Position numbers and translations under genes: made by a program
The notes under the pieces: generated by a model
What the model saw: only the letters and a program-made list of their open reading frames with translations
What the model was told of the DNA's origin: nothing
Database searches by the model: none
Source of the DNA: an uncultured bacterium
Lineage (GTDB): Bacteria > Poribacteria > WGA-4E > GCA-2687025
DNA length: 64,000 nt
Direction of reading: 5' to 3'
NCBI GenBank assembly: GCA_964473525.1
Contig: CAYYPK010000034.1
Span: 2,408 to 66,407 of the forward strand
Shown here: in pieces, positions 1 to 51,900 of the stretch
Numbering within the stretch: position 1 is the first letter of the stretch
Layout of the letters: every line of letters starts with the position of its first letter

Positions 1-5
1 CGACG

Positions 6-926
6 GTGTCCGGAGCCGAGTCTCCGGCGGTCTCCGCGTTTCGAGCGGAGACGGGTGACATCCTCAACGAGCGTGAGAGCCATTATCCCATGAGCGCAGC
101 TTACTTTCGCGCTGCGGCCGTGAGGGACTTGAGGCGCGCGCTCAAAGACGCTGAGGAAGGCGTCGCCAGCGTGGCGGCTCAGTCCGATCTGTATTGGCAG
201 AACATGGAAGAGGTGCTGGGGGACATCACGGCAATCGTTGGGATATCAGCCGAGGAGTTGCCGCTAACGGGCGTCTTCTTTCCCCGTTCAGATGGGTGGG
301 ACTTCGACTCGCTCCACGAGGAGATCTACGAACAGACCATTTACCCAGCGATGGAGCACCTGAACTACATTGACTTCGAGCCTGCCCTCCATCGCGCGCG
401 GTTCGTGATCGCTCAGTTGGCAAAGCTCGACGCTGAGAGGGGCCGGTTCCTGGATGCCGGGTGCGGGCCAGGCGTGCTCCTGTCGCTGATCTTACAGGCG
501 AAGGCCGAGTGGATCGGTCAGGGCATCGACATCAGCGCATCCTGCTGCGACTATGCAAGGAAGCTGGTGCAGCGGAAAGGCGTCGACGACCGCGCGCGAT
601 TAGATGTCGGGGACATCCGAGACCTGCCATACGACGATGAGGAGTTCGACCTCGTCGTCGCCGTTGAGGTGCTGGAGCACGTGCGCGACTCTGAGGTGGG
701 CATGCGTGAGTTGCTGCGCGTGCTAGAGCCGGGCGGACGGTGCATCTTGGCGCTGCCAGTGAATCTCCAAGCGCATGTGCACCTCCGCGACTTCAGCGAC
801 GTCTCTGAGGTGCTGACGTTCTACGAGCAGTTCGACATGGACATCCTGCGGTTCGAGTGCGAGGAGTTCATGCTGCGCGGCAACCCCTACATCGACACAT
901 TCGCCCTGATGAGAAAGCCGCTCTGA
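6..926 (+). CDS. Class I SAM-dependent methyltransferase
   Basis: 306-aa ORF with strong GC3 bias. Glycine-rich SAM-binding motif 'FLDAGCGPGVL', then 'GIDIS' and 'VVAVEVLEHV', as in Methyltransf_11/25-type enzymes. The start lies 5 nt from the window edge, so the true N-terminus may be upstream. Confidence 0.75.
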   Translation: MSGAESPAVSAFRAETGDILNERESHYPMSAAYFRAAAVRDLRRALKDAEEGVASVAAQSDLYWQNMEEVLGDITAIVGISAEELPLTGVFFPRSDGWDFDSLHEEIYEQTIYPAMEHLNYIDFEPALHRARFVIAQLAKLDAERGRFLDAGCGPGVLLSLILQAKAEWIGQGIDISASCCDYARKLVQRKGVDDRARLDVGDIRDLPYDDEEFDLVVAVEVLEHVRDSEVGMRELLRVLEPGGRCILALPVNLQAHVHLRDFSDVSEVLTFYEQFDMDILRFECEEFMLRGNPYIDTFALMRKPL

Positions 927-2074
927 TGCCTACCACGTTCACATACGGCCACTTCCTGACGGCGTTGGTTCTCGCGTTCTCCGCCTATGCGAGCTACACG
1001 GACATCCGGTGGGGAAAGGTCCGCAATCTATGTAGCTTCGGGCTCATTTACGTTGGATTGCTCGTGCAGCTGGTCTCACTGGTTCGGCGGGATGTGCAAC
1101 TCTCCGCCGTCCTGGGAACCGTCGTGGGGGGCGTTGCGGTCGCCATACTGCTGTATTGGATCGGCATACTCGCCGCCGGTGACGTGAAGCTGTTCTACGG
1201 CATCTGCTTGGCCTTGCCGCCGCAGCTGTTCGAATACGGGTCGAGCGGGCGCCTGTTCTCGCCCCTGGTTCTGGCCGTCAACACCTTCGTACCTTACGCG
1301 TTCTCGCTGCTAGCCGTGCTGATGTGGCGAAGCACCGCCAGGGAGAAGCTGCGCGTCGTGCTGGACGGCCTTCAACCAAAGAGGCTTGGGACACTCATCC
1401 TGACCCTCATTCTCTTCGTGGCGTTCTCGTCTCTTATGTATCCGGCGTTGCTGTGGCTAAGAGTGGTCCTGCCATTTCGCATGACGGGCTTCCCCGCGCT
1501 CATAGTCGTCATCCTGACGTTCTCCGTGCTCCGCAAGCGCGTGACGACGTGGATGCCCATGATCGCCGCCCGCCTTGGCGCACCTGGGAAGAAGGGATAC
1601 CTGTACTACCCTGTCCTGCTGCTGATGGGCCTAGGACTCTATCAGTTCGGCGTGCCATGGGACTTCCTACGGCGGCTGCTGTCCGCGGTGGCGTTCGTGT
1701 ACGTACTCGGCAGGCTGATGGAACTCGCGAGCCAAGTGCTCGACTCCGAGGTGCCGATTGACGATGTCAAGGAGGGAATGATCCTCTCGGAGCCGATCCT
1801 CGAGTACGGCACGGCGGATGGGCAGGTGCGCTACTACATCGGGATGGACCTGCCGGAGGACTCCGGCGCGGTGAGCGTGGAGGTGTTCGCGAATCCTGGC
1901 CGTCTGGGCGATGTGTCCGTCGAGCATCTGCGCGAGCTGTCCGCGGCGGGCGAGTTTGCGCCGTGTGGCGGTGTCGTGCGCATCCAACGTCCCGTGCGCT
2001 TCGCCCCCGTGCTGCTGGTCGGCGTGCTGATCACCGTTTCCTCCGGCGGATTCTTCTACCGCTGGTTCGTGTAG
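926..2074 (+). CDS. A24-family (prepilin peptidase/CpaA-like) polytopic membrane protein with C-terminal extension
   Basis: The ATG at 926 overlaps the upstream TGA (TGATG). Multiple hydrophobic helices. 'YASYTDIRWGKVRN' and 'AAGDVKLFYGI' resemble the two catalytic-Asp motifs of A24 aspartic peptidases. A ~100-aa soluble segment and a terminal TM are not typical of the family. Confidence 0.55.
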   Translation: MPTTFTYGHFLTALVLAFSAYASYTDIRWGKVRNLCSFGLIYVGLLVQLVSLVRRDVQLSAVLGTVVGGVAVAILLYWIGILAAGDVKLFYGICLALPPQLFEYGSSGRLFSPLVLAVNTFVPYAFSLLAVLMWRSTAREKLRVVLDGLQPKRLGTLILTLILFVAFSSLMYPALLWLRVVLPFRMTGFPALIVVILTFSVLRKRVTTWMPMIAARLGAPGKKGYLYYPVLLLMGLGLYQFGVPWDFLRRLLSAVAFVYVLGRLMELASQVLDSEVPIDDVKEGMILSEPILEYGTADGQVRYYIGMDLPEDSGAVSVEVFANPGRLGDVSVEHLRELSAAGEFAPCGGVVRIQRPVRFAPVLLVGVLITVSSGGFFYRWFV

Positions 2075-2103
2075 GGACCGGCCACCCGCCCTCCTAACCA
2101 GGA

Positions 2104-2122
2104 CTCCCTCTCTCAGAGGGAG
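2104..2122 (+). terminator. Stem-loop downstream of the 926..2074 CDS
   Basis: CTCCCTCT / AGAGGGAG form an 8-bp stem with a 3-nt loop, 30 nt after the stop codon. No U-tract follows. Confidence 0.35.
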
Positions 2123-4325: not shown

Positions 4326-5120
4326 ATGGCAACACCACGTACCTGCGTCGTATCGCTGGCCCTGTCCCTCGTCGTTGCGCTGAGCGCATCGGCAGTTCGG
4401 GAGCTTCACACCGACCAGTTCGACCGGGTGCCGCTTAGCCCAACGTGGACGTTCTTCGCCCCAGGCGGCGGCTCTTACGAGGTTCGTGATGGGTGGCTGC
4501 ACATCACGTCGCCCGGCTTCCTTGACGTCATGGCCGGGGACGAACCCTCTATGGCTCCGATGCTCCTGATAGAGCCGCCAGTTAGCGACGTGTTCACCTT
4601 CGAGACGCGGCTCCGGTTCCACAAGGACGCCCCGGGCGCGGCCGCGGGGCTCGTCGCAATACGGAAGGATCTCGAATCGCGCATGTCCCTGGAGGTCTAC
4701 ACTCGGCCGCTTGTAGGCATGGTGGTGCTGACATGGCTGGCTGGCCCCCTGCACGGCGGGGACAGCGCGCAAGTAGGTCTGGCAGGCGACACCTGGCTTC
4801 GGGCGGAGTTGCCCGCCGATATGCCTTTCACCGAACCGAGGTTCTTCTACCGGCAGGGAGGCGCGGAGGATCTCTGGATAGATGCCACGGCTCCTGACGT
4901 AGTGTTCCCATTTCGACTTCCTGCTGACATCATCAAGCCCCGGTTCCTCGCCGGCGAATACTTGATCGGCCTATTCGTCAGAGGAGGGTGGGACGAAAGA
5001 GCCGAGGACAACGAAGCGGAGGTCGCGTTCGACTACTTCCACTCGCCAGAGATGCTTGCGTTGACCGCGCATACAGGTAGCACGGCGGCCACCATCTGGG
5101 GATCGGTCAAGCACCGGTAA
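4326..5120 (+). CDS. Secreted concanavalin-like (jelly-roll) protein, tandem paralogue 1, TTWG-type C-terminal tail
   Basis: Signal peptide (..SLVVALSASA). Conserved block 'HTDQFDRxPL..WTFFAPGGGSYEVRxGWLH'. Last strand 'VAFDYFHSP'. Ends ..STAATIWGSVKHR. Roughly half to two-thirds identical by eye to the 5167..5952 product. Confidence 0.75.
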   Translation: MATPRTCVVSLALSLVVALSASAVRELHTDQFDRVPLSPTWTFFAPGGGSYEVRDGWLHITSPGFLDVMAGDEPSMAPMLLIEPPVSDVFTFETRLRFHKDAPGAAAGLVAIRKDLESRMSLEVYTRPLVGMVVLTWLAGPLHGGDSAQVGLAGDTWLRAELPADMPFTEPRFFYRQGGAEDLWIDATAPDVVFPFRLPADIIKPRFLAGEYLIGLFVRGGWDERAEDNEAEVAFDYFHSPEMLALTAHTGSTAATIWGSVKHR

Positions 5121-5166: not shown

Positions 5167-5952
5167 ATGACATTCGTCCCACGTAGCGGAATAACGCTTG
5201 CGTTGTTCCTTGCTGTTGCGCTGAGCGCGTCGGCGGCGCGGGAGCCTCACACCGACCAGTTCGATCGCCCGCCGCTCGACCGCAGTTGGACGTTCTTCGC
5301 CCCAGGTGGCGGGTCCTACGAGGTCCGCCATGGGTGGCTACACCTGGCGGCTCCCGGCCCGCTTTGGATGCTGGGAGACGAGGATTCCATGCCCCCAATG
5401 CTCCTCTTTGAGCCGCCGGCGGACGACGTATTCGCCTTCGAGACGCGACTCAAGTTCCACAGAGTCGTGCCCTTCACGTCAGCGGGTCTGGTCGTGATAC
5501 GGAAGGATCTGACGTCGCTCATGGCCTTGACATGTGTGCCCGGCCCGCGCTGGGACCGGGTGTCGCTATCGTGGCGGGATGGCGTTCCCCTTGGCGGCGG
5601 CGGCAGCGCGCAGGTCGTGGAACCCGGCGATACATGGCTCCGCCTGGAGATACCGGCTGATATGCGTGACGCCGACCCAGGATACTTCTATAAGAGGCGC
5701 GCGGAGGCCCCATGGATAGCAGCCGAGAACACGGCGAGGATCCCTCTTGCGCTCCCGGACAATATCGACCTCCGATTCCTCCCTGGCGAATACTGGATTG
5801 GGCTCTTCGTCGATGGCGGATCGGACAAACCCGGGGAAGGCAAGGAGTCGAGAGTCGCATTCGACTACTTCCACTCGCCACAGCTACAGCCGCTGGCCGT
5901 CCATGCAGGCAGCACTGCGGCCACCATCTGGGGCTCCATCAAGCAGCGGTGA
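5167..5952 (+). CDS. Secreted concanavalin-like (jelly-roll) protein, tandem paralogue 2, TTWG-type C-terminal tail
   Basis: Signal peptide (..LFLAVALSASA). Same conserved blocks as 4326..5120. Ends ..STAATIWGSIKQR. Confidence 0.75.
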   Translation: MTFVPRSGITLALFLAVALSASAAREPHTDQFDRPPLDRSWTFFAPGGGSYEVRHGWLHLAAPGPLWMLGDEDSMPPMLLFEPPADDVFAFETRLKFHRVVPFTSAGLVVIRKDLTSLMALTCVPGPRWDRVSLSWRDGVPLGGGGSAQVVEPGDTWLRLEIPADMRDADPGYFYKRRAEAPWIAAENTARIPLALPDNIDLRFLPGEYWIGLFVDGGSDKPGEGKESRVAFDYFHSPQLQPLAVHAGSTAATIWGSIKQR

Positions 5953-6573
5953 GGCGTTGCGGCGAAGGGGCTCCGCTCATCGCGTATTGTTAAGGCAACG
6001 CCAGGCGCGGATGGGGATCCGGGCGTCTGGCGAGATCGTGGCCCGCGAACAGAGGAGACGCGATGTAGGCAGGATCTACGTCGACGTGAGGGGGTGGAAC
6101 CATGCGGATCGCGATCTTCTGTCGGGCCGCCATGTCCCTGTTGGCTATGGCCGCGCGAGACAGACACACGGACACCCGGGCTAGCGTCTGCTCTATAGAT
6201 AGGACCAGACGCCAGAAAGTCTACGCGTCTGACCGATCACGCAACTGACGACAACGACCCACAACGAGTACCCGGTCGCCATACCGCTCGTGCTGTGGCG
6301 CGGGGCTCGCTGGCCTATACGCCATGCAGTCGGACGGCAAGGGCGTGCGACGGCTCTCCGATCACGCGCCGGCCTCTCGCCCTCCGCCGCCCCGGCCGAC
6401 ACCGGCGCATGGCGCGCGGCCGGAGCTTGTAAACTCGCCGCCCCTGTGTCTATACTACCAAGCGCGGGATCGCGAGCTGCCGCCTGTTCAGCATCTTGAC
6501 CGATCGACCGTTGAGCGATATAGTCTCGACGCATTTCCTGTTCCATGGGAACGACCTTGACGTGAGGTACGCA

Positions 6574-7002
6574 ATGAAGACACGCGTGTGTTCTATTGGC
6601 CTGGTGATGTTGGTCGCAGGTCTTGCCGTCCTGCAGGCGTGTGGTGGAGGTGGCGGCGACACCAGTGCTCCGCCTACGGAGATCTCCCACCCCGGTGTTA
6701 TCGTACGCATCAACTCCGACACCGACGGCAGGAAGCCGTACCTCCGTATCGACGCCGTACTACAGTACCCTGAGAATGTCGCGAGCGCGGAATCCAACCG
6801 TATGACGCGGCTGGGTGGTGGCGAAGGTAAGGCTCTGATCGGCAGGGGCCTTCTGCGCAACTTGCCCACCGCCGAGGAAATCGAATCGGACCAGCTCTTC
6901 CACCAGGATGAAGCTGCGGACGCAATCCGCGAAGTACTGGTCGAAGCAGGTTTCCCGGCGCCGTCGCAGGTCATCTTCCCCAGCTGGGTCATCCAGGGGT
7001 AG
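6574..7002 (+). CDS. Small lipoprotein consisting of an uncharacterised ~105-aa domain ending FPSWVIQG
   Basis: An internal ATG at 6574 gives MKTRVCSIGLVMLVAGLAVLQAC (lipobox LQAC) followed by a Gly-rich linker. The remaining ~105 aa are ~65% identical by eye to the C-terminus of the 42023..43192 product. Confidence 0.65.
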   Translation: MKTRVCSIGLVMLVAGLAVLQACGGGGGDTSAPPTEISHPGVIVRINSDTDGRKPYLRIDAVLQYPENVASAESNRMTRLGGGEGKALIGRGLLRNLPTAEEIESDQLFHQDEAADAIREVLVEAGFPAPSQVIFPSWVIQG

Positions 7003-7018
7003 CGGCGGCATCCCAAGC

Positions 7019-7408
7019 TCAGGTGCGTGGGACGTGGCGGACGAACAGGCTCCACTTGGGCTTTACCAGCCGGTCGCCATCGTCGGCGACATCCCACACG
7101 CGACGCGGAATCTTACGCACGAACACGGCGCCCCCGTAGAACTGCTCCACCTGAGTGAGTTCTACAAGGGGGCGCTTCCGCTTCCGGCGGATCGCCCGCT
7201 CCCACGATGTATGCGCCAACCACAGCGTCGAGAAGAAGACCGCGATGCCGCAGATAGTCGTGAGTCGCTGGCCGAGGTCGGTGATGACGACCTCGCGGTA
7301 CTGCCCGAAGCGTTCGGGGTCGCCCTCTTGCAGGAAACGCAGACCCGCTCCGAACAGAAACAGCGCCCACGTCCCCACGTACGGCCCGGGCAGACTAGCA
7401 AAGCGCAT
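7019..7408 (-). CDS. Small membrane protein, unknown function
   Basis: Good GC3 bias. Start chosen at MRFASLPGPYVGTWALFLFG. Two hydrophobic segments, then a basic soluble tail. No family recognised. Confidence 0.45.
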   Translation of the reverse strand: MRFASLPGPYVGTWALFLFGAGLRFLQEGDPERFGQYREVVITDLGQRLTTICGIAVFFSTLWLAHTSWERAIRRKRKRPLVELTQVEQFYGGAVFVRKIPRRVWDVADDGDRLVKPKWSLFVRHVPRT

Positions 7409-7533
7409 GGTGACACGCCAGGATGGGTGAAGGCGCCGGGCGGCGCGTGGTGAAGAAGGTAGCCGCACAGTGCCACCGGCGCCCAATAAGTGTCAAGATG
7501 CGTAGCCGACACTAGCAGAGACAGGAGTAACAC

Positions 7534-8301
7534 ATGAAGTGGTCCCTCAACACCTACCAGACGGCCCAGGACTGGTCCCTCCGGGAGACGCTCCGCGTAG
7601 CCAAGGAGACCGGGTACGAAGGCGTCGAGTTTCTGATGGACTTCGATCAGCCACACGGCTTCGAGTGGGATACGCCGCGTGAGCAATGGAAGCCCATGAA
7701 GCTCACTATCGCAAGGACCGGACTCAAGACCACTGGCTTGACCAGTTGCCAGGTGTTCCACCACGAGGACGCCTCTGACCGCGCGCGAACCGTCGAGCGT
7801 GTGAAGCGCGTTGTCGAGATGGCGAGGTACTTCGACTGCGACCACGTGCGCGTCCTGGGAGACCGTTTCGACGACTCGAATCGCGACGATGTCGTCGGAT
7901 GGGTCACGGACGGGCTCCGCGCCCTTGGGGAGTTCGCTGCGCCGATGGATGTCACCGTCAGCATGGAAATGCACGGCTCGTTCACGGAAGCGGATGCGGC
8001 CATGTCCGTCATTGAGGGCGTCGGTCTCGACAACGTCGGCTTCGTCTTCAACAGCCAGTTCCGAGGGTGTGAGGACGGGGACATCGAGCCGCTCTTCTCG
8101 CGCGTGGCGCCGCACATTACCTCCGTGCACACGCACCAGGCGGAGAATCCCGAGCAGTTCGAGCTCTACCGCCAGATGTTCCAGTGGCTGAAGCGCATGG
8201 GCTTCGACGGCTACGTCTCGAACGAATGCGCGTACCGAGGACCAGACCCGGAGAAGGTGCTGAGCATGTATATCGCGCTGTTTAAGGCGATGGCCGCGTA
8301 G
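7534..8301 (+). CDS. Xylose isomerase-like TIM-barrel protein (sugar phosphate isomerase/epimerase family)
   Basis: 255 aa. 'AKETGYEGVEF', 'VRVLG', 'MEMHG' and 'VHTHQ' show the typical AP_endonuc_2/TIM-barrel pattern. Confidence 0.7.
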   Translation: MKWSLNTYQTAQDWSLRETLRVAKETGYEGVEFLMDFDQPHGFEWDTPREQWKPMKLTIARTGLKTTGLTSCQVFHHEDASDRARTVERVKRVVEMARYFDCDHVRVLGDRFDDSNRDDVVGWVTDGLRALGEFAAPMDVTVSMEMHGSFTEADAAMSVIEGVGLDNVGFVFNSQFRGCEDGDIEPLFSRVAPHITSVHTHQAENPEQFELYRQMFQWLKRMGFDGYVSNECAYRGPDPEKVLSMYIALFKAMAA

Positions 8302-10817: not shown

Positions 10818-12752
10818 ATGCCACCGAGGATCGCCGCATCCAAGGCGTCCCAGACGCAGCCAGTCCGGCTCCGCGCCGTGCTGCTCGCGCTGGCGATTAT
10901 CCCGCTGAACGCATACTGGATCGCGCTGACGGAAATGGTGTGGTCGTCATTGCACTTCACGGCGGCCTCCCTGCCGCTGAACGTCGTGTTCATCCTGTGC
11001 TGCATCATCGGCTGCAACGCGCTGACTCGTCGGATGACACCCAATGCCGCTCTGTCGCCAGCGGACCTGCTCGTCATCTACATCATCCTCGCGACGGCTA
11101 GCGCCATCAGCGGCTACGACAGCCTGGTTGGCCTGGTGGGCGTGCTGCCCCACGCGACGCATTTCGCCACGGCGGAAAACGACTGGACGGCACTGTTTCG
11201 GTCCCACCTTCCCGACTGGCTGACGCTGACGGACGCCAAGACCGTGCGGGCGTTCTACGCCGGTGAGGCGTCGTTCCTCGGGGCGGGACACTGGCGGGCG
11301 TGGGTCCGTCCGATGGCGTACTGGGGGATGTTCCTCACGCTGCTCGCGGGGCTGTCGCTCTGCATCACCGTCCTGCTGCGGCGGCCGTGGACAGAACACG
11401 AGAAGCTCGCTTACCCCATCATCCAGCTCCCTCTGGAACTCAGCCGACGCAAGACGATGCTTTTCCGCGGCCGCCTGTTCTGGATAGGTTTCGGCATCGC
11501 CGCCGTCGTGGACGTGCTCAACGGGCTGAACTACCTGTACCCAGCCGTGCCCTCCATGCCGGTGAGGGGAACTCAGCTAGAGCGGTACGCAACCGAGAAA
11601 CCGTGGTCCGCCATCGGATGGACCCCCGTGCGCTTCCGATTCTTCATGGTGGGGATGACGTACCTGCTGCCGCTCGACCTGTCCGTCTCATGTTGGGCGT
11701 TCTACTGGATCCGCAAGGCGGAGCAGGTCGTGGGCGCCGCCGTTGGGCTGTCGCGCGTGCCGGGGTACCCCTTCCTTGGGCAGCAGGCCATGGGCGGCAT
11801 GCTGGGGCTGGGGGTCGTGGCCCTGTTTGGCATCCGTCGGCATCTTGCCGGGGCGTTCCGGTCTCTGACGGGACCAGACGACGGCGCGTCCGACGGTGAA
11901 CCCATCACATACAGGGCAGCGGTGTTCGGGGCGGCGTTCTGCGCCGTGGCGATGGCGTGGTTCAGCGTGCGCATGGGTCTGTCGCCGTGGGTCATGGTCG
12001 CGTTTGCCGGGGTCTTCTGGACGATGTACGTCGGCATGGCGCGCATCCGCGCCGAGGCTGGAGTGCCAGAGCACGACCTGAACCTGCTGTCGCCACAGGA
12101 ATCGCTCGTAGCCGTGTTCGGGACGCGCGCCGTAGGAGCGCGCAGCCTGTCGGCGCTGTCGCTGTTCGTCTGGTTCAGCCGTCGCAAGCGCAACTATCTG
12201 ATGCCGCACCAGTTGGAAGCCTTCAAGATAGCCGAACGGGAGCGGCTGCCCAACCGCGCGGTATTCGGCGTGCTGCTGTTGGCGACCGTCGCGGGACTCG
12301 TCTCCGCGATGATCATCTTCCCCGGCGTGCTGTACCGTTACGGCGCGGAGTCGCGCGCGTACGGTATGAAGGACGTCGGGTGGAACACGTACAACCGGCT
12401 GGCGTCCTGGCTGCAAGCGCCCCGCGAGACGGACTGGCTGGCTACAGGCTTCCTCGGAGGCGGCGTTGGCGTGTCCGCGCTGCTCATGTTCCTGCGGCAT
12501 CGGTTCGTGTGGTGGCCGCTGCACCCGGCGGGTTACGTCCTCGGCACGGGCTTCGGTATCGACGACTACTGGTTCGCGATGGTCCTGTCGTCGGGCGCCA
12601 AGTTCGTCGTGCTGCGAAGTGGCGGCGTGGGAGCGTACCGCCGGTCGCTGCCGTTCTTCTTTGGACTTATCCTCGGCGACTACCTGCTGGCGTGCGGCTG
12701 GGCGCTCCTGGGCGTGGTCCTCGACCAGCCGATGTACACGATGTGGCAATAG
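10818..12752 (+). CDS. Large polytopic membrane protein, unknown function
   Basis: 644 aa with more than 12 hydrophobic segments and good GC3 bias. No catalytic motif recognised. Confidence 0.65.
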   Translation: MPPRIAASKASQTQPVRLRAVLLALAIIPLNAYWIALTEMVWSSLHFTAASLPLNVVFILCCIIGCNALTRRMTPNAALSPADLLVIYIILATASAISGYDSLVGLVGVLPHATHFATAENDWTALFRSHLPDWLTLTDAKTVRAFYAGEASFLGAGHWRAWVRPMAYWGMFLTLLAGLSLCITVLLRRPWTEHEKLAYPIIQLPLELSRRKTMLFRGRLFWIGFGIAAVVDVLNGLNYLYPAVPSMPVRGTQLERYATEKPWSAIGWTPVRFRFFMVGMTYLLPLDLSVSCWAFYWIRKAEQVVGAAVGLSRVPGYPFLGQQAMGGMLGLGVVALFGIRRHLAGAFRSLTGPDDGASDGEPITYRAAVFGAAFCAVAMAWFSVRMGLSPWVMVAFAGVFWTMYVGMARIRAEAGVPEHDLNLLSPQESLVAVFGTRAVGARSLSALSLFVWFSRRKRNYLMPHQLEAFKIAERERLPNRAVFGVLLLATVAGLVSAMIIFPGVLYRYGAESRAYGMKDVGWNTYNRLASWLQAPRETDWLATGFLGGGVGVSALLMFLRHRFVWWPLHPAGYVLGTGFGIDDYWFAMVLSSGAKFVVLRSGGVGAYRRSLPFFFGLILGDYLLACGWALLGVVLDQPMYTMWQ

Positions 12753-13862: not shown

Positions 13863-15425
13863 TCATGCCGCCGGCGCCCCATGGGAGCGCAACACCTCGA
13901 TAGCCTCCTGATAGCCGGGATCCGCGGCAACGGTTCCAGTGTTCTGGGACACGCGCTCGGTTACTCGGAGCGCGTAGGCTAGCGGAGTGGCCTCGATGAG
14001 CTCATTCTCAACGAGGACGGGTCTCGCGGAGGCGGTATCTGCCCCCGCGTCGATGAGCGCCCCTACGATTTCGGGGAGGTACCCGTAGCCACCCTCTTGG
14101 TTTGTGCACGCGCCGAAGGGCGTGCCAACAGCGATGAACAGGGGCCACATGGGCCGTGCCGACACGGTCAGCCAGAGCGCCGGGCTCTTCCATCCCTGGT
14201 CTGGATTCGTGGGGACCGGGTATCCACGCTGGAACCCCGACCACACCACGGCATTCGGATCCGCGCCCCGGTTGAGAACATAGGGCACGAGATGCGCGTT
14301 CTGCAGTTCACACTGAAACGCAAGAGGCCCACACGCCGCGTTCGGATGCGGGTCGATGCGCGCGCCGTGTTCGAGCAATAGGTCCATCGTCGCGGTGTTG
14401 CGTGCGGCCGTCAGCGCGACATCCCCGTCTGCGGTCACGTCCCCGCCAGCCTCTATCAGGAAGGACACCAGATCTGTGTGGCCGTAGCGAGCCGCGATGG
14501 CGATAGGTTTCATCCCGCCGTGCGCGTCCCATCCATCAACCGCGAAGCGGGCCGTCAGCAACGCGGGCGTGTCTCCGACGAGCCTGGCGACCGTATCTCG
14601 GTCCCCTGCTTTGATGGCCGTTCCCAGGTCGGGGAGCACGCCCTCGTGTAGAAGCAGCGAATACACCTGTCGCGGCTCATCGCCATGGTGAAGGTCCGTG
14701 CGCGCCGCAACTTCCATGGGGTTCCTACCCCGTTCATCTCGCGCATCGCGCCAACGTTGCCCTCCCGCGATCAGCTCACGCAGCCGGTCGACATCCGCCT
14801 GCTTGATGGAGGCAAACAGCTCCTCGACGAATGCGCCATCGCGTGAGGGCTTCGCCTGGTGCAGTACTTCACGCGCCATCGTCTCCAACCTTCCCTTGAG
14901 TCGGCTCCGCGCGGAGTGGAGCCGCGTGCTGACGGTCGTCTCTTTCACTCCGAGGAATCCGGCTATCTGCCCGTGCGTGTACCCGTCGAGGTAGTAGAGA
15001 GTCGTCGTCGTGCGCTCGTGCTCGGGCAGCGCGGCTATCGCGCGGCGCACGCTCGAACTCACCTCGGCTTCCTCAGCGCGTGTGTGTGGGTCCGCCCGGT
15101 CTGACGAGGCCCATCGCTCGCTCTCTGCCAGCTCCTCGCGTCGTCGCCGTGCGCGTAGCAGCACGTCGCACTGCGTGCGCACGATGAGGCGGAACCAACC
15201 GGGAAACGCGGCCGGATCGCGAAGGTCGCCCATCTTCCGCCACGCGGTGAGGAACGCCTGTTGCGCTACGTCTTGGGCGTCGGCCTCGGCGCCAAGTAGC
15301 GCGTAGGCGTACCCATACGCCATGTCCTCGAAGCGCCGGACGATGGCGCGAAAGGCGTCCGCGCGAGCGTGCGCCGTCGCGGCGCCGTCCGTGGCGCGTT
15401 CTACAAGGTGGCGTATGTCAGGCAT
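13863..15425 (-). CDS. ECF (sigma-70 family) sigma factor fused to C-terminal ankyrin repeats
   Basis: Start moved to the ATG at 15425 (AGGGGA SD 9 nt upstream). Region 2 is 'DVAQQAFLTAWRKMGDLRDPAAFPGWFRLIV'. Region 4 is 'ALPEHERTTTTLYYLDGYTHGQIAGFLGVKETTVSTRLHSARSRL'. About 330 aa of ANK-like repeats follow ('IAARYGHTDLVSFLIEAGGDV', 'LLLEHGARIDP', 'VLNRGADPN'). Confidence 0.75.
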   Translation of the reverse strand: MPDIRHLVERATDGAATAHARADAFRAIVRRFEDMAYGYAYALLGAEADAQDVAQQAFLTAWRKMGDLRDPAAFPGWFRLIVRTQCDVLLRARRRREELAESERWASSDRADPHTRAEEAEVSSSVRRAIAALPEHERTTTTLYYLDGYTHGQIAGFLGVKETTVSTRLHSARSRLKGRLETMAREVLHQAKPSRDGAFVEELFASIKQADVDRLRELIAGGQRWRDARDERGRNPMEVAARTDLHHGDEPRQVYSLLLHEGVLPDLGTAIKAGDRDTVARLVGDTPALLTARFAVDGWDAHGGMKPIAIAARYGHTDLVSFLIEAGGDVTADGDVALTAARNTATMDLLLEHGARIDPHPNAACGPLAFQCELQNAHLVPYVLNRGADPNAVVWSGFQRGYPVPTNPDQGWKSPALWLTVSARPMWPLFIAVGTPFGACTNQEGGYGYLPEIVGALIDAGADTASARPVLVENELIEATPLAYALRVTERVSQNTGTVAADPGYQEAIEVLRSHGAPAA

Positions 15426-15835
15426 CTGGTGATCCCCTGGCGTTCTTGATAGTAGGACACCCGTGAACCAACATCCGTCAGCGGGAAATGCGTGGGCAGC
15501 GTGTTGGCCCGACGCGGCCATGTCGATTGAGGGTGTTCGCTCCCAGTAGGATGGCGCGCGGCGAAGTGCTAGACGGGCAATGCGCGACGGTCTTCTGCGT
15601 CGTGGGCGCCTCTGCACGCGGTCGTGCCGGGTTTGACCGCATAGCCCTGTCGGGTATATCCTGTAAAGGTGGGTCTCCCGCCTTACAGGGACAGTCTGGA
15701 ACGTCCCGCCTTCCCGTCTACGTACGTTCGCCTGCCATCGCGCCGGCATGCGGCTCGGTAAGAATCGCGCGCGTAGACATCAGTGGCGCCCGTAGCGCCT
15801 CGTGCCAACGCGGGTGAACCGCAGATTGGCCCTAC

Positions 15836-18702: not shown

Positions 18703-19704
18703 TCAGCGAGCGGGAGCGCCGAGACGTTTCAGCCAACCCCACGTGGTCGTGCGCCGACCGATCGGAGAGACGCTACGCGGGACATCCGGGTCGAACCAAC
18801 TCGCGCCGTTTACACTGGCGATTCGTTCGTCCGTAACCTTCTGCACGATGCGACCATCCAGGTCCATGATGAACAGCCCTTGGGAGTCGTCGCGTGTCGA
18901 CTCAAACACGATCTGCGTGCCGTCGGGTGACCAACAGGGGTTGCCATCCCACGCGAGGTGCTTGGTGATGCGTCGCTCGTCGGACCCGTCGGTGTTGATT
19001 GTGTAGATGTCGGGCATGGCGCCCTCCACGTCAGACTTCATGAACGCGATGGCGTTCTCCCGGGGATGCCACGCCGCCGATCCACCCCCAACGTGGTCGG
19101 GTAACTGACCCGTATGCCGCCCTCGTCCATCCATGAAATGGATGGCATGGCCACCCGTCCTGCTTGAGGAATAGGCGATGGCGTTCCCTACCGGCCTCCA
19201 GCTAGGCCGGAAGGCGTACGTATCCAGGTCGGTCAGCCGTGTGTCTGGGCCTCCCTGAACGTCGGTCACATACACGCCGTGCGCATTCGGCCATCGGGTC
19301 GACGAGAAGGCCACCGCGTTCCCGCGAGGCGACCAGGTGGGGAAACCGTCATAGTTTCCGTTGTCTTCACCGTCAGAAATCAGCCGCTGGGCGCCAGCGT
19401 CGGCGTCCATCACGTAGATGCGCTGCCCAACCCAATTGCGGTTCGATGAGAAGGCTATCTGACGGCCGTCCGGTGACCATGCGGGATCCGACGACCATCC
19501 GCTCTGTCCCCCGTCCTGGAAGGTCAACTGCTCGAGCTCCCCGCCGTCGAGGGTCGTGACGTAGATGTTCGACGTGCCGCCGGCCCCTGCCCCTGCAAAC
19601 ACGATGCGCGCCCCATCCAGCGCCCACGCCCACGGCGTCGAACACGCGAATCCGAGCAACCCAATCAGCGCGAGACGGTTCGCGCGCGCCGCTACAGGCT
19701 TCAT
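18703..19704 (-). CDS. Secreted PD40/TolB-like beta-propeller protein, TTWG-type tail
   Basis: Signal peptide MKPVAARANRLALIGLLGFACS. Repeated 'P.WSPDG..IAF.S.R.G...IY' PD40 blades. Ends ..GRRTTTWGWLKRLGAPAR. Confidence 0.8.
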   Translation of the reverse strand: MKPVAARANRLALIGLLGFACSTPWAWALDGARIVFAGAGAGGTSNIYVTTLDGGELEQLTFQDGGQSGWSSDPAWSPDGRQIAFSSNRNWVGQRIYVMDADAGAQRLISDGEDNGNYDGFPTWSPRGNAVAFSSTRWPNAHGVYVTDVQGGPDTRLTDLDTYAFRPSWRPVGNAIAYSSSRTGGHAIHFMDGRGRHTGQLPDHVGGGSAAWHPRENAIAFMKSDVEGAMPDIYTINTDGSDERRITKHLAWDGNPCWSPDGTQIVFESTRDDSQGLFIMDLDGRIVQKVTDERIASVNGASWFDPDVPRSVSPIGRRTTTWGWLKRLGAPAR

Positions 19705-19774
19705 CGAGTCTGCTCTCCTTCCCGGCGCCGCGCCATGTCACGCGCCTGCGCTGCCTGCGCGGCGAGGCATTCTC

Positions 19775-19792
19775 ACTGTAGTGTCTCACAGT
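19775..19792. promoter_or_regulatory. Palindrome ACTGT-N8-ACAGT in a divergent promoter region
   Basis: Perfect 5+5 inverted repeat with an 8-nt spacer. It lies in the relatively AT-rich spacer between 18703..19704(-) and 19953..20735(+). Confidence 0.3.
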
Positions 19793-19952
19793 AACGGCAT
19801 GAGAGCCACCGTGGTTGCTCAGTGAACACGACGATGGACAGCGGCAGGGATTTCTGGCAAGCTGCGTTGGCGCCCTGTAGGAGCGCACAGGACGACCGAC
19901 GCCGCTTGGGTAGCGATCGTCGACGGTCAGCATCCGCTCGGAGGCAAGCGTC

Positions 19953-20735
19953 ATGCGTATCGGCAACTGCGGTCTTTACTGGCTCTGCGTCGTGTTCTTG
20001 GTGAGCATGGGTCAAGCTTCCCACGCCCTGCCGAAGGACGGGCTGTTCATGCACTACACGTTTGAACCGGCCACCGTGAGCGGCGGTGTTGCTGAAGATG
20101 TCTCGGGAACGGGCGCCGACGGCACATTGCAGAACGGCGCGAAGGCCCAAGGCGGCGTCCTGGTGCTGGACGGCGCGGACAGCTACATCAATACTGATCC
20201 GCTCGAAATACGCACTGGCGGGGTCATCCCCTTCACCGCGATGGCTCAGTTTCGCACGGACAGGGTCGACAACGGCCCGCTCTGGATGTGGGGAGACAAC
20301 GCGGTCCCGAGCGCGTCGGGGGCAGCCGAGGGGCCCGTGGGCTGGCGAAGCACCACCTCCAACTTCGCGGCAGGATTCTACCAGGGCGGGCACTTCTATG
20401 CCGACGCCGAGGTGGATTACGCTGATGGGGAATGGCACTCCGTGGCCCAGGTGGGAGACCTGGACCTGGGTTACCTCTACATCGACGGGGAGCAGATCAG
20501 CTCGACGACCGCAGGTTACGTGTACGGGGCAGCGCCATACTTCCTGCTTGGCGCCCGGACCAAGAACTCCGGGAGTGAAATCGACGATATCGAGTACTTC
20601 GAGGGTGAGATCGACAACGTCCTGCTATACGATCGCGCGCTGACCGCGGACGAAGTCCTGGCGGTCACTGAGCAGGCGCAGGCGGTCTCGTCCCACGGCA
20701 AACTCGCCACCCTGTGGGGCGAGCTAAGGCGGTAG
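19953..20735 (+). CDS. Secreted LamG-domain protein, TTWG-type tail
   Basis: Signal peptide. 'LFMHYTFE..DVSGTGADGTL.NGA' and 'FEGEIDNVLLYDRALTADEV' are Laminin_G_3 hallmarks. Ends ..GKLATLWGELRR. Confidence 0.8.
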   Translation: MRIGNCGLYWLCVVFLVSMGQASHALPKDGLFMHYTFEPATVSGGVAEDVSGTGADGTLQNGAKAQGGVLVLDGADSYINTDPLEIRTGGVIPFTAMAQFRTDRVDNGPLWMWGDNAVPSASGAAEGPVGWRSTTSNFAAGFYQGGHFYADAEVDYADGEWHSVAQVGDLDLGYLYIDGEQISSTTAGYVYGAAPYFLLGARTKNSGSEIDDIEYFEGEIDNVLLYDRALTADEVLAVTEQAQAVSSHGKLATLWGELRR

Positions 20736-20808
20736 ACCAGGCGTCGAGATTTCGGTCGTTGCACGCGCCTTGCGGTAGTGGGTGTCCGCGGGCCGGTTTC
20801 CCACGCGC

Positions 20809-21786
20809 TCAACGTACTGGAGCGCCGAGGCTCTTCAACCAACCCCACGTGGTCGCGTGCCGACCCACGGGCGACACGCTGCGCGGGTGGTCCGGGTCGT
20901 ACCAACTCGATCCTCGGAACTGCGTGAACCGCTCGTCGGTCACTCTCTGGACGAAGCGGCCGTCCAGGTCCATGGTGAAGAGCCCAGCGACGCCATCACG
21001 TCGCGAGGCGAACAGAATCCGTGTGCCGTCTGGCGACCAGCGCGGCTCCCAGCCACCCATGGGATGCATCGTCAGGCGGCGTTCGCCAGATCCATCGACG
21101 TGCATCGTATGGATGTGCCAATCCGATGCAAACACGACCGCCGTCCCGTGGGGATGCCAACTGGGCATCGTGTCCGACGCTGGACGGTCAGTCAACTGAG
21201 CCAGGTGAATCCCATCGCCGTCCATGATGTGTATATCCGTGGGTTCGCGACCATCTCCGTCCGACGCATAGGCGATCGCATCTCCTGTCGGACTCCAGCT
21301 GGGCCAGAAGCAGTGCGTATCTGGGTCGGTCAGGCGGGTATCTCCGCCACCATTGAGGCTGGTCGCATATACCCCCTTGAACCGCCCGCCGCCGTCAGAC
21401 TGGAAGGCGACTCCGTCGTTTCGAGGTGACCAAGTGGGGCGCCAGTCGGACGAGCTGTCGTCTGAGATGCGTCGAAGGTTGTCTCCGGCCGCGCCCATCA
21501 GGTAGATGTGGGTCGGACGCCCTGCGAGACCGTACGCGAGAGCGATGGTTCTGCCGTCGTTCGACCACGCCGGGTAGGCGGCTCGGCCCCCGTGGCCCGC
21601 CAACTCCTCGTACCAAGCCCCGTCAGGATTCGTCTTGTAGACACGCCACTCGCGGTCAGCCGCCAGGCCTCCGAAAAGTATGCGCGCCCCATCAAGAGGC
21701 CATGCCGGGAGAGCCGAGATCGCAGTCAGGGTCAGGACCACCATCGCGAGTCCGTTTGCGAGCGCGCGCCATACCATCGACTTCAT
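20809..21786 (-). CDS. Secreted PD40/TolB-like beta-propeller protein, TTWG-type tail
   Basis: Start moved to the ATG at 21786 (GGAGAGGA SD), giving the signal peptide MKSMVWRALANGLAMVVLTLTAISA. PD40 blades. Ends ..GRHATTWGWLKSLGAPVR. Confidence 0.8.
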   Translation of the reverse strand: MKSMVWRALANGLAMVVLTLTAISALPAWPLDGARILFGGLAADREWRVYKTNPDGAWYEELAGHGGRAAYPAWSNDGRTIALAYGLAGRPTHIYLMGAAGDNLRRISDDSSSDWRPTWSPRNDGVAFQSDGGGRFKGVYATSLNGGGDTRLTDPDTHCFWPSWSPTGDAIAYASDGDGREPTDIHIMDGDGIHLAQLTDRPASDTMPSWHPHGTAVVFASDWHIHTMHVDGSGERRLTMHPMGGWEPRWSPDGTRILFASRRDGVAGLFTMDLDGRFVQRVTDERFTQFRGSSWYDPDHPRSVSPVGRHATTWGWLKSLGAPVR

Positions 21787-21863
21787 TGCGGCCGGGATCC
21801 TCTCCGACCGGGCGCCGGTCCAAGGCAGTGCCGGCTGTGGGTGTAGGAAGGCTGCGCCCGCTT

Positions 21864-22859
21864 TCAGCGGGCAGGCGCGGCGAGACGCTTCATCCAACCC
21901 CACGTGGTCGCGTGCCGACCGGCGGGCGACACACTACGCGGGTGGTCCGGGTCGTACCAACTCGAGCCTTCTATGCCTATGAAGCGGTCGTCTGTCACGC
22001 GACGAACGATGCGGCCGTTCAGGTCCATGATGAACAGCGCGTCGTCGCCGTCGCGATCCGACGTGAACAGGATCTGAGTGCCGTCGGGCGACCAATCCGG
22101 GTCGTGGTCGTACGCGGGATGCACGGTAAGACGCCGCTCCTTGGTACCGTCAGTGCTGATCGTGTGGATGTCGTAGTTCTCGCCGTCACCCTCAGCGACA
22201 TACGCAAGAGTGTCTTCGCGAGGATGCCACGTCGGCTGAAAGTCGATGCGCGGGCGATCGGTCACCTGGGCCAGGTGAAGGCCGTAGGCGTCCATGAGGT
22301 GTATGTCGAGTCCTTCCCCGTACCACCCCGCGTAAGCGATGACGTCTCCCGCCGGACGCCAGCTAGGACCCGACGCGCCCGCCAGCCCAGTCAGCCGGAA
22401 GTCTCCACGGCCGTTAAGAGGTCCATGATGGTAGTTCACGTAGACGCCCTGGCGGTCGGACCCTTGCCGCGCTGACCTGAAGGCAATCGCTTCGTCGTAA
22501 GGCGCCCAGGTGGGTCCGTAATCGCCCGGCCCTTCCGACAGATGTCTCAGACTCCCGCCGTCGGCGTCGATCCGATAGATGCGGGTACGATCGACTCCGT
22601 CGCTGTAGTTGAAGGCGATTCGGCGCCCGTCGTGTGACCACGCGGGGTTGCCTGCGACAGAGGGCGCCGAAATCAGCTGCTCAATCTCTGAGCCTCCGGG
22701 GTCTGTCACGTACAGCCCACGCTGGAGGTCCGGTGTAACACCACCGAACGCGATACGGGGCCCACCCAGGGCCCATGCTCCCAGAGTGGAACACGCGAAC
22801 AGGATCAGGGCCATGATCGTGATTCCGAACGCGCGCACGTCCGACTGCGCCAGCTTCAT
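21864..22859 (-). CDS. Secreted PD40/TolB-like beta-propeller protein, TTWG-type tail
   Basis: GGAGAGGGA SD. Signal peptide. PD40 blades. Ends ..GRHATTWGWMKRLAAPAR. Confidence 0.8.
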   Translation of the reverse strand: MKLAQSDVRAFGITIMALILFACSTLGAWALGGPRIAFGGVTPDLQRGLYVTDPGGSEIEQLISAPSVAGNPAWSHDGRRIAFNYSDGVDRTRIYRIDADGGSLRHLSEGPGDYGPTWAPYDEAIAFRSARQGSDRQGVYVNYHHGPLNGRGDFRLTGLAGASGPSWRPAGDVIAYAGWYGEGLDIHLMDAYGLHLAQVTDRPRIDFQPTWHPREDTLAYVAEGDGENYDIHTISTDGTKERRLTVHPAYDHDPDWSPDGTQILFTSDRDGDDALFIMDLNGRIVRRVTDDRFIGIEGSSWYDPDHPRSVSPAGRHATTWGWMKRLAAPAR

Positions 22860-25063: not shown

Positions 25064-25876
25064 CTACCGCCCCGCCTTGAGGCGCTGCCACTGCGTCGCG
25101 AGCAACCCGTCTGACGCGGCCACGTCCCCTATGAAACCAACGGCTGACAACTCCCACACCTGAGCGTGATCCAGCGCCTCGTCAAACAGATACAGCTCGT
25201 CCAACTCGCCTTGTAGCCAATGGTTCTGACCAGCTCGCGACCCGATGTAGATGGACCCGTCGTTGGCGCGGATGGCATTGGGAGCGTCGACCTCACCCAC
25301 GGGCATGCCATCGACATAGAGGACCGCAGTCAGGCCGTCATACGTCGCCGCGATGTGACGCCAACCCGTGTTGAGCAGGTGGCCGCCGCCGCCGACATCG
25401 TCGTGTCCTGGGATTTCGAACACCACCTCGTCGTCGAAGACGGGCTGAAGGCTATAGGATCCTGGCGCCCACGGGGCTCCCTTCTCGATTGCCACCTGGT
25501 GGTCTCCCATGGGGCCGTCGCCGTCCATACGCACCCAGCACGCAACGGTCATCGCGGCGCCCACATCGAGCCGGTCGTCGTGCGGCACGGTGGCCCATCG
25601 CCCGGCGCCAAAACGAACAGCCCCGCCCTTCCGCTCTAGGAGCAGGAGCTCGCGCCACTCACCCCTGCCGTCCATCCGACCCCAGTAGCCCTTGACCTAC
25701 TCTGGGTCGCCGTGCAACGTCGCGTGATGGCCGTTCCCGCTGCCGTCGATGGCGATATCGCCTTCTCCCTCGTCGAACTGCAACCAGAGAGTCGGGCGTG
25801 GCACTGAGATCACAACCGTCGCCTGTGCTGACAGCGCGACGAGTAAGAAGGCGAGAGAGATGGCGCAGCGTTTCAC
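25064..25876 (-). pseudogene. LamG-domain secreted protein interrupted by one in-frame TAG (25697..25699)
   Basis: A GTG at 25876 (GGAGGCAAACT upstream) gives the signal peptide KRCAISLAFLLVALSAQA. 'LWLQFDEGEGDIAIDGSGNGHHATLHGDPE' then TAG, then in frame 'VKGYWGRMDGRGEW...' continues the LamG fold. Ends ..LLATQWQRLKAGR. Confidence 0.65.
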
Positions 25877-41758: not shown

Positions 41759-42022
41759 GAGTCGTCCTCCCTCGCGGACATTCGGAATGGCGAACTCCGT
41801 CGAGGCGTGGCGAGACGCCGGCCGACGGCGCCGACAACGTACCTCGCGACAGAGGGCGATGCAACGCCGCACACGTCACTATCGGAGCCGACGCGCCGCT
41901 CAGCACATCTGCGTAGCATATCGTGATCCTTGCCACACAAGGCGGCTAGAGCCTACCCTGTGGCGGCTAGTATCGGCGGGCGCGACGGCGCGCCATTCTC
42001 GACTCAGCCTGGAGGATCGCAT

Positions 42023-51672: not shown

Positions 51673-51900
51673 ATGTTCTCCTCCCCGCTTTGGACACCAC
51701 ACCACCCGACCAGGTTGAGGCATCGCGGCCTCGGCTCCCGTCCGTAGGCGAGTCCAGCACGGTAGCAGGTCCGCGTTTCGCCTACGCAGATCTCCACCCG
51801 CGCTCTGGCAGCGCACTCCAGGCACTGGGAATATCGACGGACTCGGCCGCGATGGCAAGCTGGACGCCGTTGGGATCAGACGCGGCGAAGGTAGCGTCTG

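Follow-up and report, generated by a model that had tools for sequence, protein, structure and literature searches.

A short conserved C-terminal tail on exported proteins of Candidatus Poribacteria: candidate for an undescribed sorting or anchoring signal

Tail-bearing genes of the analyzed contig

The stretch of DNA analyzed here (the window: 64 kb with 65% GC; positions 2,408 to 66,407 of contig CAYYPK010000034.1, assembly GCA_964473525.1, from an uncultured bacterium of the phylum Poribacteria) comprises 52 genes according to a gene model guided by the GC content at third codon positions (GC3). Thirteen GC3-supported genes encode proteins with the same C-terminus, ..V-x-P-x-G-[KR]-x-A-T-T-W-[GA]-x-L-[KR], followed by 1–10 residues before the stop codon. 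A sequence-only reading of the window had listed these genes and proposed their common tail as an undescribed sorting or anchoring tag; the motif was indeed present in 13 of the 13 listed genes, and its C-terminal occurrence in 13 of 52 gene models compares with a mean of 0.07 and a maximum of 2 in 2000 trials in which the residues of each protein were shuffled. The loose pattern W[GAQ]x[LIMV][KR] gave 19 matches in the six-frame translation of the window: Thirteen are the listed C-termini, whereas the other six lie in non-coding frames or are isolated internal matches (2 internal matches in the 18,412 residues of the 52 window proteins). According to the results presented here, the tail is a modular C-terminal tag confined to exported proteins with unrelated passenger domains.

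Four window carriers contain a PD40 beta-propeller: the exported proteins 18703..19704 (minus strand; tail at 18703..18777, RSVSPIGRRTTTWGWLKRLGAPAR; tail sequences are given up to the stop codon), 20809..21786 (minus strand; tail at 20809..20883, RSVSPVGRHATTWGWLKSLGAPVR) and 21864..22859 (minus strand; tail at 21864..21938; modeled with AlphaFold2, see below), and the C-terminal half of 46324..48033 (plus strand; tail at 47974..48033, AAVTPSGKRLTRWGDLKRR), in which an extracytoplasmic function (ECF) sigma factor, a putative single transmembrane (TM) segment, the propeller and the tail follow one another. Three carriers are of Laminin_G_3/LamG type, i.e. the exported proteins 19953..20735 (plus strand; tail at 20679..20735, QAVSSHGKLATLWGELRR) and 40988..41758 (minus strand; tail at 40988..41053; likewise modeled) and the probable pseudogene 25064..25876 (minus strand; tail at 25064..25126, DVAASDGLLATQWQRLKAGR). 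The exported concanavalin-like protein 4326..5120 (plus strand; tail at 5061..5120, LTAHTGSTAATIWGSVKHR) and its paralogue 5167..5952 (plus strand; tail at 5893..5952, LAVHAGSTAATIWGSIKQR) are GH43_C2-like. Three exported proteins have no family match: 54357..55238 (minus strand; tail at 54357..54419, LAVEVRGKAATRWAALKMRR) and 55235..56092 (minus strand; tail at 55235..55318, LDVSSARKVATTWAHLRAGNRGRGASR, with the longest extension behind the tail) match neither Pfam nor NCBIfam, and the 225-aa protein 59278..59955 (minus strand; tail at 59278..59340, LAVSSDDRLATTWGDLKARQ) has no match in NCBIfam. The remaining carrier, 43196..44116 (plus strand; tail at 44051..44116, RTASPRGRLATTWAALRAATP), is a signal-peptide protein split by an in-frame TGA.

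The adjacent genes 54357..55238 and 55235..56092 (both on the minus strand) overlap by 4 nt. The segment preceding the tail in their products (W[R/H]F[D/E]EG...SGxG) is similar to the motif of the N-terminal strand in LamG_3 proteins and may be a permuted or truncated LamG element.

The in-frame stop codons of two carriers replace an expected tryptophan codon (TGG): the TAG at 25699 within 25064..25876 (..PE-stop-VKG in place of PE[W]VKG) and the TGA at 43337 within 43196..44116 (..DD-stop-SS in place of DD[W]SS), the latter split having been called independently also in the JGI and ENA assemblies. Both carriers are probably pseudogenes, with G>A changes as the alternative, and are likely to fit a paralogue family that is both expanding and decaying.

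Distribution of the tail among genomes

One genome per species (185,579 species) was scanned with a DNA pattern for KL[ATS]TTWGx[LI]K, for which approximately 20 chance matches were estimated. At least 119 loci were obtained (designated by L numbers below); among the matches listed, 108 were labeled Poribacteria, eight were unlabeled metagenome-assembled genomes, and one locus each was labeled Synechococcus, Bacteroidaceae and Pseudomonadota. In the Synechococcus and Bacteroidaceae loci and in one unlabeled locus, the motif is not in frame, and the DNA match is due to chance. The locus labeled Pseudomonadota (L050; JAPPIL010000222.1, RHO2_bin_21) encodes two genuine tail-bearing genes and is probably mis-binned, as indicated by the Poribacteria bin RHO2_bin_20 from the same sponge sample. 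As judged from these sequence data, the tail appears to be phylum-specific to Poribacteria. In agreement, all named homologues among the 62 relatives of the LamG carrier 40988..41758 belong to Candidatus Poribacteria; the same protein was also found in marine water-column metagenomes, which points to a high-GC pelagic Candidatus Poribacteria lineage as the origin of the window.

The sequence-only reading had predicted a large family, and this is borne out by public data: A tail profile matched at least 847 clusters (50% identity) among 1.84 billion representative proteins at E <= 0.001, the profile being partly contaminated by the LamG C-terminal helix, with the result that a few tail-less LamG-repeat proteins scored. 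In 132 of 146 newly retrieved top matches the motif was located within 10 residues of the end; the other 14 were LamG-repeat proteins, variant tails, or fragments with read-through. A tail-only profile run against an index of 5.8 billion proteins retrieved short fragments only.

The position of the motif is as strict as had been claimed. Besides the 13 of 13 window carriers, 179 of the 188 loose motif matches in the 909 kb of scanned loci are situated no more than 10 residues from the stop codon; the remainder are chance matches in ThiI ('VAAWQMIK'), matches in non-coding frames and one case with the stop 12 residues away. Apart from the ThiI matches, no internal occurrence was found in the long open reading frames (ORFs) of these loci, and the examined sequence contains no real internal or cytoplasmic occurrence.

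Confinement to exported proteins and diversity of the passengers

Twelve window carriers possess an N-terminal signal peptide with an AxA-type cleavage site, as had been noted in the first reading. Its description of the thirteenth, 46324..48033, as TM-anchored has to be weakened, since the segment preceding the PD40 domain (residues 199–219) is only moderately hydrophobic (Kyte-Doolittle 1.5). The tail was absent from all of the approximately 30 cytoplasmic window proteins; exported window proteins that lack it are a cytochrome/DsbA-like protein, a lipoprotein and two proteins with another common C-terminal module. In the ORFs of the scanned loci, the expected enrichment among signal-peptide proteins was pronounced: The tail was present on 138 of 264 soluble ORFs with a signal-peptide-like N-terminus versus 12 of 362 ORFs without (odds ratio 32, p = 5e-49), and the latter twelve are ORFs with over-extended start codons or truncated fragments.

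The other C-terminal module is located on the exported proteins 6496..7002 and 41930..43192 (both plus strand); it comprises approximately 90 residues, ends with ..EAGFPAPxxV(I/L)FPSWVIQG before the stop codon, and has no match in Pfam or NCBIfam.

After removal of signal peptide and tail, 145 full-length carriers from the scanned loci (median length 260 residues) were grouped by BLAST into 19 clusters. Laminin_G_3 proteins, often encoded in tandem, account for 85 of the 145; the other clusters comprise 3-keto-disaccharide hydrolase/DUF1080, CBM9, F5/8 type C (discoidin), DUF3108-like, PD40 and BNR-like propeller proteins, a 968-aa protein with a Lamin-tail domain (LTD), and several groups without Pfam match. 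The claim of at least three different folds within the window could not be upheld: LamG, DUF1080 and GH43_C2-like domains belong to one concanavalin-like clan, which leaves two clear folds and the unassigned proteins. For the wider carrier set it holds, with at least six unrelated folds.

Anatomy and conservation of the tail

The Trp-anchored consensus of these 145 carriers, a set selected by the canonical pattern, is [L/T/F]-[A/P]-V-[E/D]-[P/A]-x-[G/D]-K-L-[A/T/S]-T-T-W-G-x-[L/I]-K, followed by 1–6 mostly basic or polar residues (mode 3; length mostly 2–4; rich in R, S, Q and K). The glycine behind the tryptophan is present in 134 of 145 carriers, and a valine occupies position -10 in 140 of 145, even though this position lay outside the search pattern. 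Conservation across the families starts approximately 12–13 residues before the tryptophan; the conserved part amounts to 17 residues. The terminal residue is most commonly arginine (50/145) and aromatic in 23 of 145 carriers. Within the last 30 residues, the most hydrophobic 15-residue segment reaches a Kyte-Doolittle value of 0.31 in the median carrier and of 1.47 in the most extreme one, and the longest stretch free of charged or amide residues spans 8 residues in the median and never exceeds 13; the earlier statement that the tail is too short for a C-terminal domain of the type IX secretion system (T9SS) and lacks a TM helix is in accordance with these values. The lineage of the window shows a looser version of the tail than the canonical form, including a K to R exchange in 3 of 13 window tails. 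A concerted lineage shift of tail residues across the passenger families, which would hint at co-evolution with a single partner, was considered and is not claimed here, the reference set having been chosen by the canonical pattern.

The tail is retained over large evolutionary distances. Of the 62 homologues of the LamG carrier 40988..41758, the most distant of which share 28% identity with it, 58 bear the tail at the extreme C-terminus; the four others are fragments or a divergent 338-aa protein. Absence from orthologues, which the sequence-only reading had named as evidence against a tag, was thus not observed.

The same reading had pointed to the unusual conservation at the 3' ends of the PD40 paralogues. 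Indeed, the three gene bodies (18703, 20809, 21864) share 58–60% nucleotide and 47–49% amino-acid identity, compared with 76–85% and 74–83%, respectively, in the last 35 codons; the run of 27 identical nt shared by the copies 20809 and 21864 was recovered, in addition to a run of 29 nt. Selection or gene conversion had been offered as the cause. The identical residues of the 20809/21864 pair are encoded by identical codons in 79% of cases in the tail versus 47% in the body; gene conversion is possible for this adjacent pair and would at most be local. The conservation across the family is, by contrast, best read from the sequences as purifying selection on the peptide: At the conserved positions of the motif (V, K, L, T, T, G, K), every synonymous codon is in use in genomes of 41% to 65% GC, and the DNA similarity among the PD40 paralogues falls off directly after the stop codon. 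With synonymous variation free and DNA conservation ending at the stop, the peptide, and not the nucleic acid, is what selection acts on; a DNA or RNA element at the gene ends is ruled out.

The same data bear on the possibility that the tail has no tag function at all, i.e. that it is a remnant of common ancestry, has been spread by gene conversion, or represents such a DNA/RNA element. The 85 LamG paralogues among the 145 carriers, often in tandem, and the excess of identical codons in the 20809/21864 tails are what would be expected in this case. In contrast, at least six unrelated folds carry the tail, it is conserved in genomes of widely differing GC content with free synonymous variation, the DNA conservation does not pass the stop codon, and the tail persists down to a passenger identity of 28%; absence of function is largely refuted by these observations and in our estimation extremely improbable.

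Structure models of tail-bearing proteins

AlphaFold2 models calculated with alignments were obtained for one carrier each of the LamG and the PD40 type. In 40988..41758, the LamG domain was predicted with values of the local distance difference test (pLDDT) above 90, in contrast to 44–51 for the tail; in 21864..22859, the respective values are above 90 for the propeller and 40–55 for the tail. The tail is undocked in both models: For the last ~25 residues, no more than a short helix over TTWGxLK is predicted, with low confidence, and these residues are not packed on the domain. According to the models of these two folds, the tail as a terminal strand of the passenger fold is ruled out; the possibility that it belongs to an already annotated domain, which the sequence-only reading had regarded as fatal to its proposal, is thereby removed. 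The LamG model resembles lectin-like jelly-rolls, i.e. the HCN subdomain of clostridial neurotoxin, the lectin domain of trans-sialidase and an accessory domain of GH43 proteins.

The predicted helix raises the question of an in-plane anchor, whereby the tail would lie as a short cationic, Trp-containing amphipathic helix on a membrane leaflet or on lipopolysaccharide and would require no protein partner. Its occurrence in both modeled carriers, the location of L, W and L/I on one helical face with flanking K and R, a hydrophobic moment of 0.38 (0.27 for the membrane-targeting sequence of MinD), and the compatibility with soluble as well as inner-membrane-tethered carriers are in favor of such an anchor. 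However, the helix is of low confidence (pLDDT 40–55) and contains just three large hydrophobic residues at a mean hydrophobicity of approximately zero, and the near-invariant T-T, G and V-E-P would not be expected for simple lipid binding. Direct lipid binding is in consequence regarded as quite improbable.

Membrane-anchored carriers

The tail is also found at the periplasmic end of three inner-membrane-anchored signaling proteins. Besides the window protein 46324..48033 (sigma-TM-PD40), these are two proteins encoded at locus L120: P0342, a BlaR1-type protein (Peptidase_M56) with a PD40 extracytoplasmic sensor and the tail ..AVFPAGKLMSTWAWLKQTFH, whose gene is preceded by a gene for a BlaI-type repressor (pair at 5229..7542, plus strand), and an ECF sigma-TM-Kelch protein (255..2105, minus strand) with a clear TM segment (residues 218–236) at the position of the moderately hydrophobic one of the window fusion and the degenerate tail ..VSLQGKLPTKWGAEKSK. 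No full-length orthologue of the window fusion was found among its 120 best-scoring homologues: These align to the PD40 part only, the named ones originate from other phyla, and the tail is present in 46324..48033 itself and P0342 only, while the PD40 homologue P0253 bears a T9SS C-terminal domain in its place. If the anchored carriers are functional, the tail would be read on the periplasmic side without need for a release from the cell. The presence of the tail on inner-membrane-anchored transducers thus argues against a pure signal for secretion across the outer membrane and favors docking or retention; in view of the missing full-length orthologue of the window fusion, the argument for a periplasmic site carries moderate weight.

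As ECF-sigma fusions and BlaR1-type proteins are classes under regulated proteolysis, the tail might alternatively serve as a C-terminal degron or regulatory handle that is read by a periplasmic C-terminal processing or PDZ protease and triggers the sigma/BlaR1-type transducers. The confinement of the motif to the vicinity of the free C-terminus would suit this function. The final residues, however, vary in sequence and length (1–10), unlike PDZ ligands, and a conserved degron on half of the exported soluble proteins of the sampled loci is implausible; no S41 protease was found nearby, and the PDZ protein of the window is a Trx7/PDZ selenoprotein. We consider a degron very improbable.

The Trx7/PDZ (seleno)protein is encoded at 50395..51675 (minus strand) and matches NCBIfam model NF041199 with 343 bits (cut-off 300). 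An in-frame TGA at 51469..51471 lies within its C-V-P-U redox motif and probably encodes selenocysteine; ORF lists split the gene into 51469..51858 and 50395..51456.

Further ECF sigma fusions of the window are 13863..15749 (minus strand; with ankyrin) and 44792..45943 (minus strand; with DUF1080, without TM helix or tail); one-component transmembrane sigma factors seem to be common in Poribacteria. A large membrane protein of the DUF6785/DUF6784 type is present in multiple copies in the phylum (10818..12752 of the window, plus strand; 7575..9512 of L120, minus strand; L060, L063, L077), and the L120 copy adjoins the gene of the tail-bearing BlaR1-PD40 protein.

Comparison with known C-terminal signals

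Neither the whole carriers (E up to 1) nor the isolated tails (E up to 10) matched a sorting-signal model in Pfam or NCBIfam release 20.0 (June 2026); comparison of the tail profile with PDB sequences gave chance matches only (E above 0.03), and no description of the tail was found in the searchable literature. The lack of a match to any named sorting signal, on which the sequence-only reading had relied, is in agreement with these results. Like C-terminal tags in general, the tail is restricted to exported proteins, position-specific, combined with unrelated passengers and kept in orthologues.

In genomic behavior, the tail is like the PEP-CTERM signal (TIGR02595), which also occurs at the extreme C-terminus of signal-peptide proteins with unrelated passengers, including LamG, and is lineage-restricted; PEP-CTERM carriers number dozens to hundreds per genome. 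Both signals contain a short proline motif (V-E-P in the tail, P-E-P in PEP-CTERM) and a basic end. In contrast to PEP-CTERM, the tail has no hydrophobic TM stretch between motif and basic residues and no match to TIGR02595/PF07589, and its core K-L-x-T-T-W-G-x-L-K is without PEP-CTERM counterpart. As for LPXTG signals of sortases, the consensus contains no LPXTG, no TM helix was detected, and no NCBIfam match was obtained.

These likenesses could indicate a cleavable signal for a sortase- or exosortase-like transpeptidase that cleaves in the vicinity of V-E-P or behind W-G and transfers the passenger covalently to lipid, glycan or peptidoglycan, with x-[L/I]-K-x(1-6) as the leaving peptide. 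The genomic behavior would be that of PEP-CTERM, LPXTG and GlyGly-CTERM signals, the Pro-containing motif lies upstream and the basic end downstream, the number of residues behind the invariant K varies within narrow limits (mostly 2–4), and the G after W is near-invariant. However, to our knowledge all transpeptidase-type signals need a TM helix for presentation to the membrane enzyme, and the tail has none. Moreover, the K to R exchange in 3 of the 13 window tails is at odds with a Lys-based linkage, it is difficult to see why sensor domains of inner-membrane transducers should be covalently attached, and a non-exhaustive search of the window and of the neighbors brought up neither a gene nor a model match for sortase, exosortase or rhombosortase (none of the 64-kb window genes encodes an exosortase). 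A transpeptidase signal is therefore unlikely in our view.

With the T9SS C-terminal domain (TIGR04183/PF18962), the tail shares the C-terminal position on Sec-exported lectin, propeller and carbohydrate-binding module (CBM) passengers, and the PD40 homologue P0253 from another phylum bears the T9SS domain where the Poribacteria proteins bear the tail. In contrast to the tail, a linear peptide of 17 residues, the T9SS domain folds into a beta-sandwich of 70–100 residues; TIGR04183/PF18962 matched none of the carriers, including the C-terminal 134 residues of the 968-aa carrier, and no folded C-terminal domain was predicted by AlphaFold2. Kamke et al. 2014 (PMC3909097) described TIGR04183-like C-terminal domains on repeat proteins of Poribacteria in the absence of structural genes for the T9SS (Por secretion system) and assigned no pathway to them; the present tail is not mentioned there.

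A linear peptide might nevertheless do the work of the T9SS domain as a minimal signal for translocation across the outer membrane, or for surface exposure, by an outer-membrane translocon. This is suggested by the passengers (lectins, CBMs, propellers), which belong to classes equipped with C-terminal sorting domains in other phyla, by the replacement observed in P0253, by the lack of the tail on periplasmic-type window proteins (cytochrome/DsbA-like protein, lipoprotein), and by the T9SS-like domains without T9SS genes in Poribacteria, for which a pathway has already been suspected (Kamke et al. 2014, PMC3909097). On the other side, the inner-membrane-anchored carriers cannot be secreted, no translocon candidate was found, and the tail shows no similarity to TIGR04183/PF18962, so that this function appears unlikely.

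Resemblance to dockerins consists in the attachment of one C-terminal module via a linker to many carbohydrate-binding or -active passengers, with presumed docking to a scaffold. The dockerin, however, is a folded, duplicated calcium-binding module of ~60–70 residues without sequence similarity to the tail; no Pfam match was obtained, the 17 conserved residues contain no Asp/Asn-rich loops, and no cohesin-like partner was identified. The cargo-loading peptides of encapsulins, the encapsulation peptides of bacterial microcompartments and the peroxisomal targeting signal PTS1 are, like the tail, linear C-terminal peptides of 10–20 residues on a flexible linker that are disordered by themselves and read by a receptor pocket, and the G-x-[L/I]-K ending of the tail resembles the G-S-L-K ending of encapsulin peptides; their cargo, in contrast, is cytoplasmic or cytosolic and without signal peptides, whereas the tail carriers are exported. 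Finally, the beta-signal of outer-membrane proteins (OMP) is likewise short, lies at the C-terminus of exported proteins and shows polar and hydrophobic residues in alternation; it differs in its aromatic end on a beta-barrel, whereas only 23 of 145 tails are aromatic-ended and the LamG/PD40 passengers are soluble. In summary of these comparisons, the tail is not a member of the PEP-CTERM, T9SS, LPXTG, dockerin or OMP beta-signal families and is apparently undescribed.

Proposed function of the tail

Based on these data, we propose a phylum-specific linear recognition tag without TM helix that is bound by an envelope partner and thereby retains or docks exported proteins, a reading to which we assign an even chance. 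The carriers, as suggested by their signal peptides, would be exported via Sec, and the passenger domain would fold; the tail, according to the models of two folds, would hang free on a short linker, where an envelope partner shared by the carriers, a receptor or scaffold facing the periplasm, might then bind it as a short linear peptide. Binding would retain or dock a large repertoire of small lectin-like modules in the envelope, and the same tail might occasionally tether the periplasmic sensor domains of membrane-anchored sigma/BlaR1-type transducers. Such a tag would be similar to dockerins and cargo-loading peptides in its logic and to PEP-CTERM and LPXTG signals in its genomic behavior. 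The position of the tail, its restriction to exported proteins, its modularity, conservation and phylum restriction and its undocked state in the models are what was found; the existence and location of the partner and the effect on localization are what we infer.

Several points weigh against recognition by a docking partner. The near-invariant T-T-W-G-x-L-K would fit the recognition site of an enzyme equally well, and the weak helix predicted over this segment is of low confidence. The anchored carriers are few and could be recent fusions without function. Furthermore, neither a binding partner or receptor nor a processing enzyme was identified. In 788 clustered ORFs from the 119 loci, the recurrent neighbors of carriers were TPR, CRTAC1-like, PhyH, GFO/IDH/MocA, methyltransferase and ECF-sigma proteins, all of which are multi-copy or syntenic. 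An exported TPR protein (~437 aa) and a CRTAC1-like FG-GAP/ASPIC-UnbV protein (~533 aa) adjoin carriers of at least five passenger families (L004, L013, L019, L057, L062, L072, L081, L090, L091, L098, L100, L101, L107, L112, L113 and others); these could represent glycan-related cassettes or lead to the tail-binding partner, and, both being multi-copy, are weak leads only.

The tail probably marks a new way of placing proteins in the cell envelope. The signals LPXTG, PEP-CTERM, GlyGly-CTERM and T9SS C-terminal domain have in each case led to a machine of the envelope dedicated to them, and all C-terminal sorting signals that we know of use either a TM helix or a folded domain. If the proposed function holds true, a linear, TM-less tag carried by a large part of the proteins that an uncultivated phylum exports would imply a different recognition principle. 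The more far-reaching proposition, i.e. an undescribed sorting or anchoring system of Poribacteria with dedicated envelope machinery and a TM-less 17-residue signal on more than half of the soluble signal-peptide ORFs of the sampled loci, amounting to a further class besides the signals of sortases, exosortases, rhombosortases and the T9SS, has in our judgment slightly less than an even chance of being correct.

The tag would label those Poribacteria proteins that are destined for the envelope, mostly lectin-like proteins that are likely to bind glycans of host or particles, and would be useful for the reading of sponge-symbiont genomes and metaproteomes: Cleavage between K and L of K-L-A-T-T-W-G-x-L-K gives a well-sized tryptic peptide. 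It could further serve as a simple marker for the assignment of contigs to Poribacteria.

A protein with the C-terminus ..RPKLATTWGHLKSGK directly before the stop codon is also encoded on a contig classed as viral (L127; IMG/VR UViG_3300012947_000048, ~1..341, plus strand); a prophage, a Poribacteria contig with a wrong classification, or a phage protein that uses the tag of the host are conceivable explanations.

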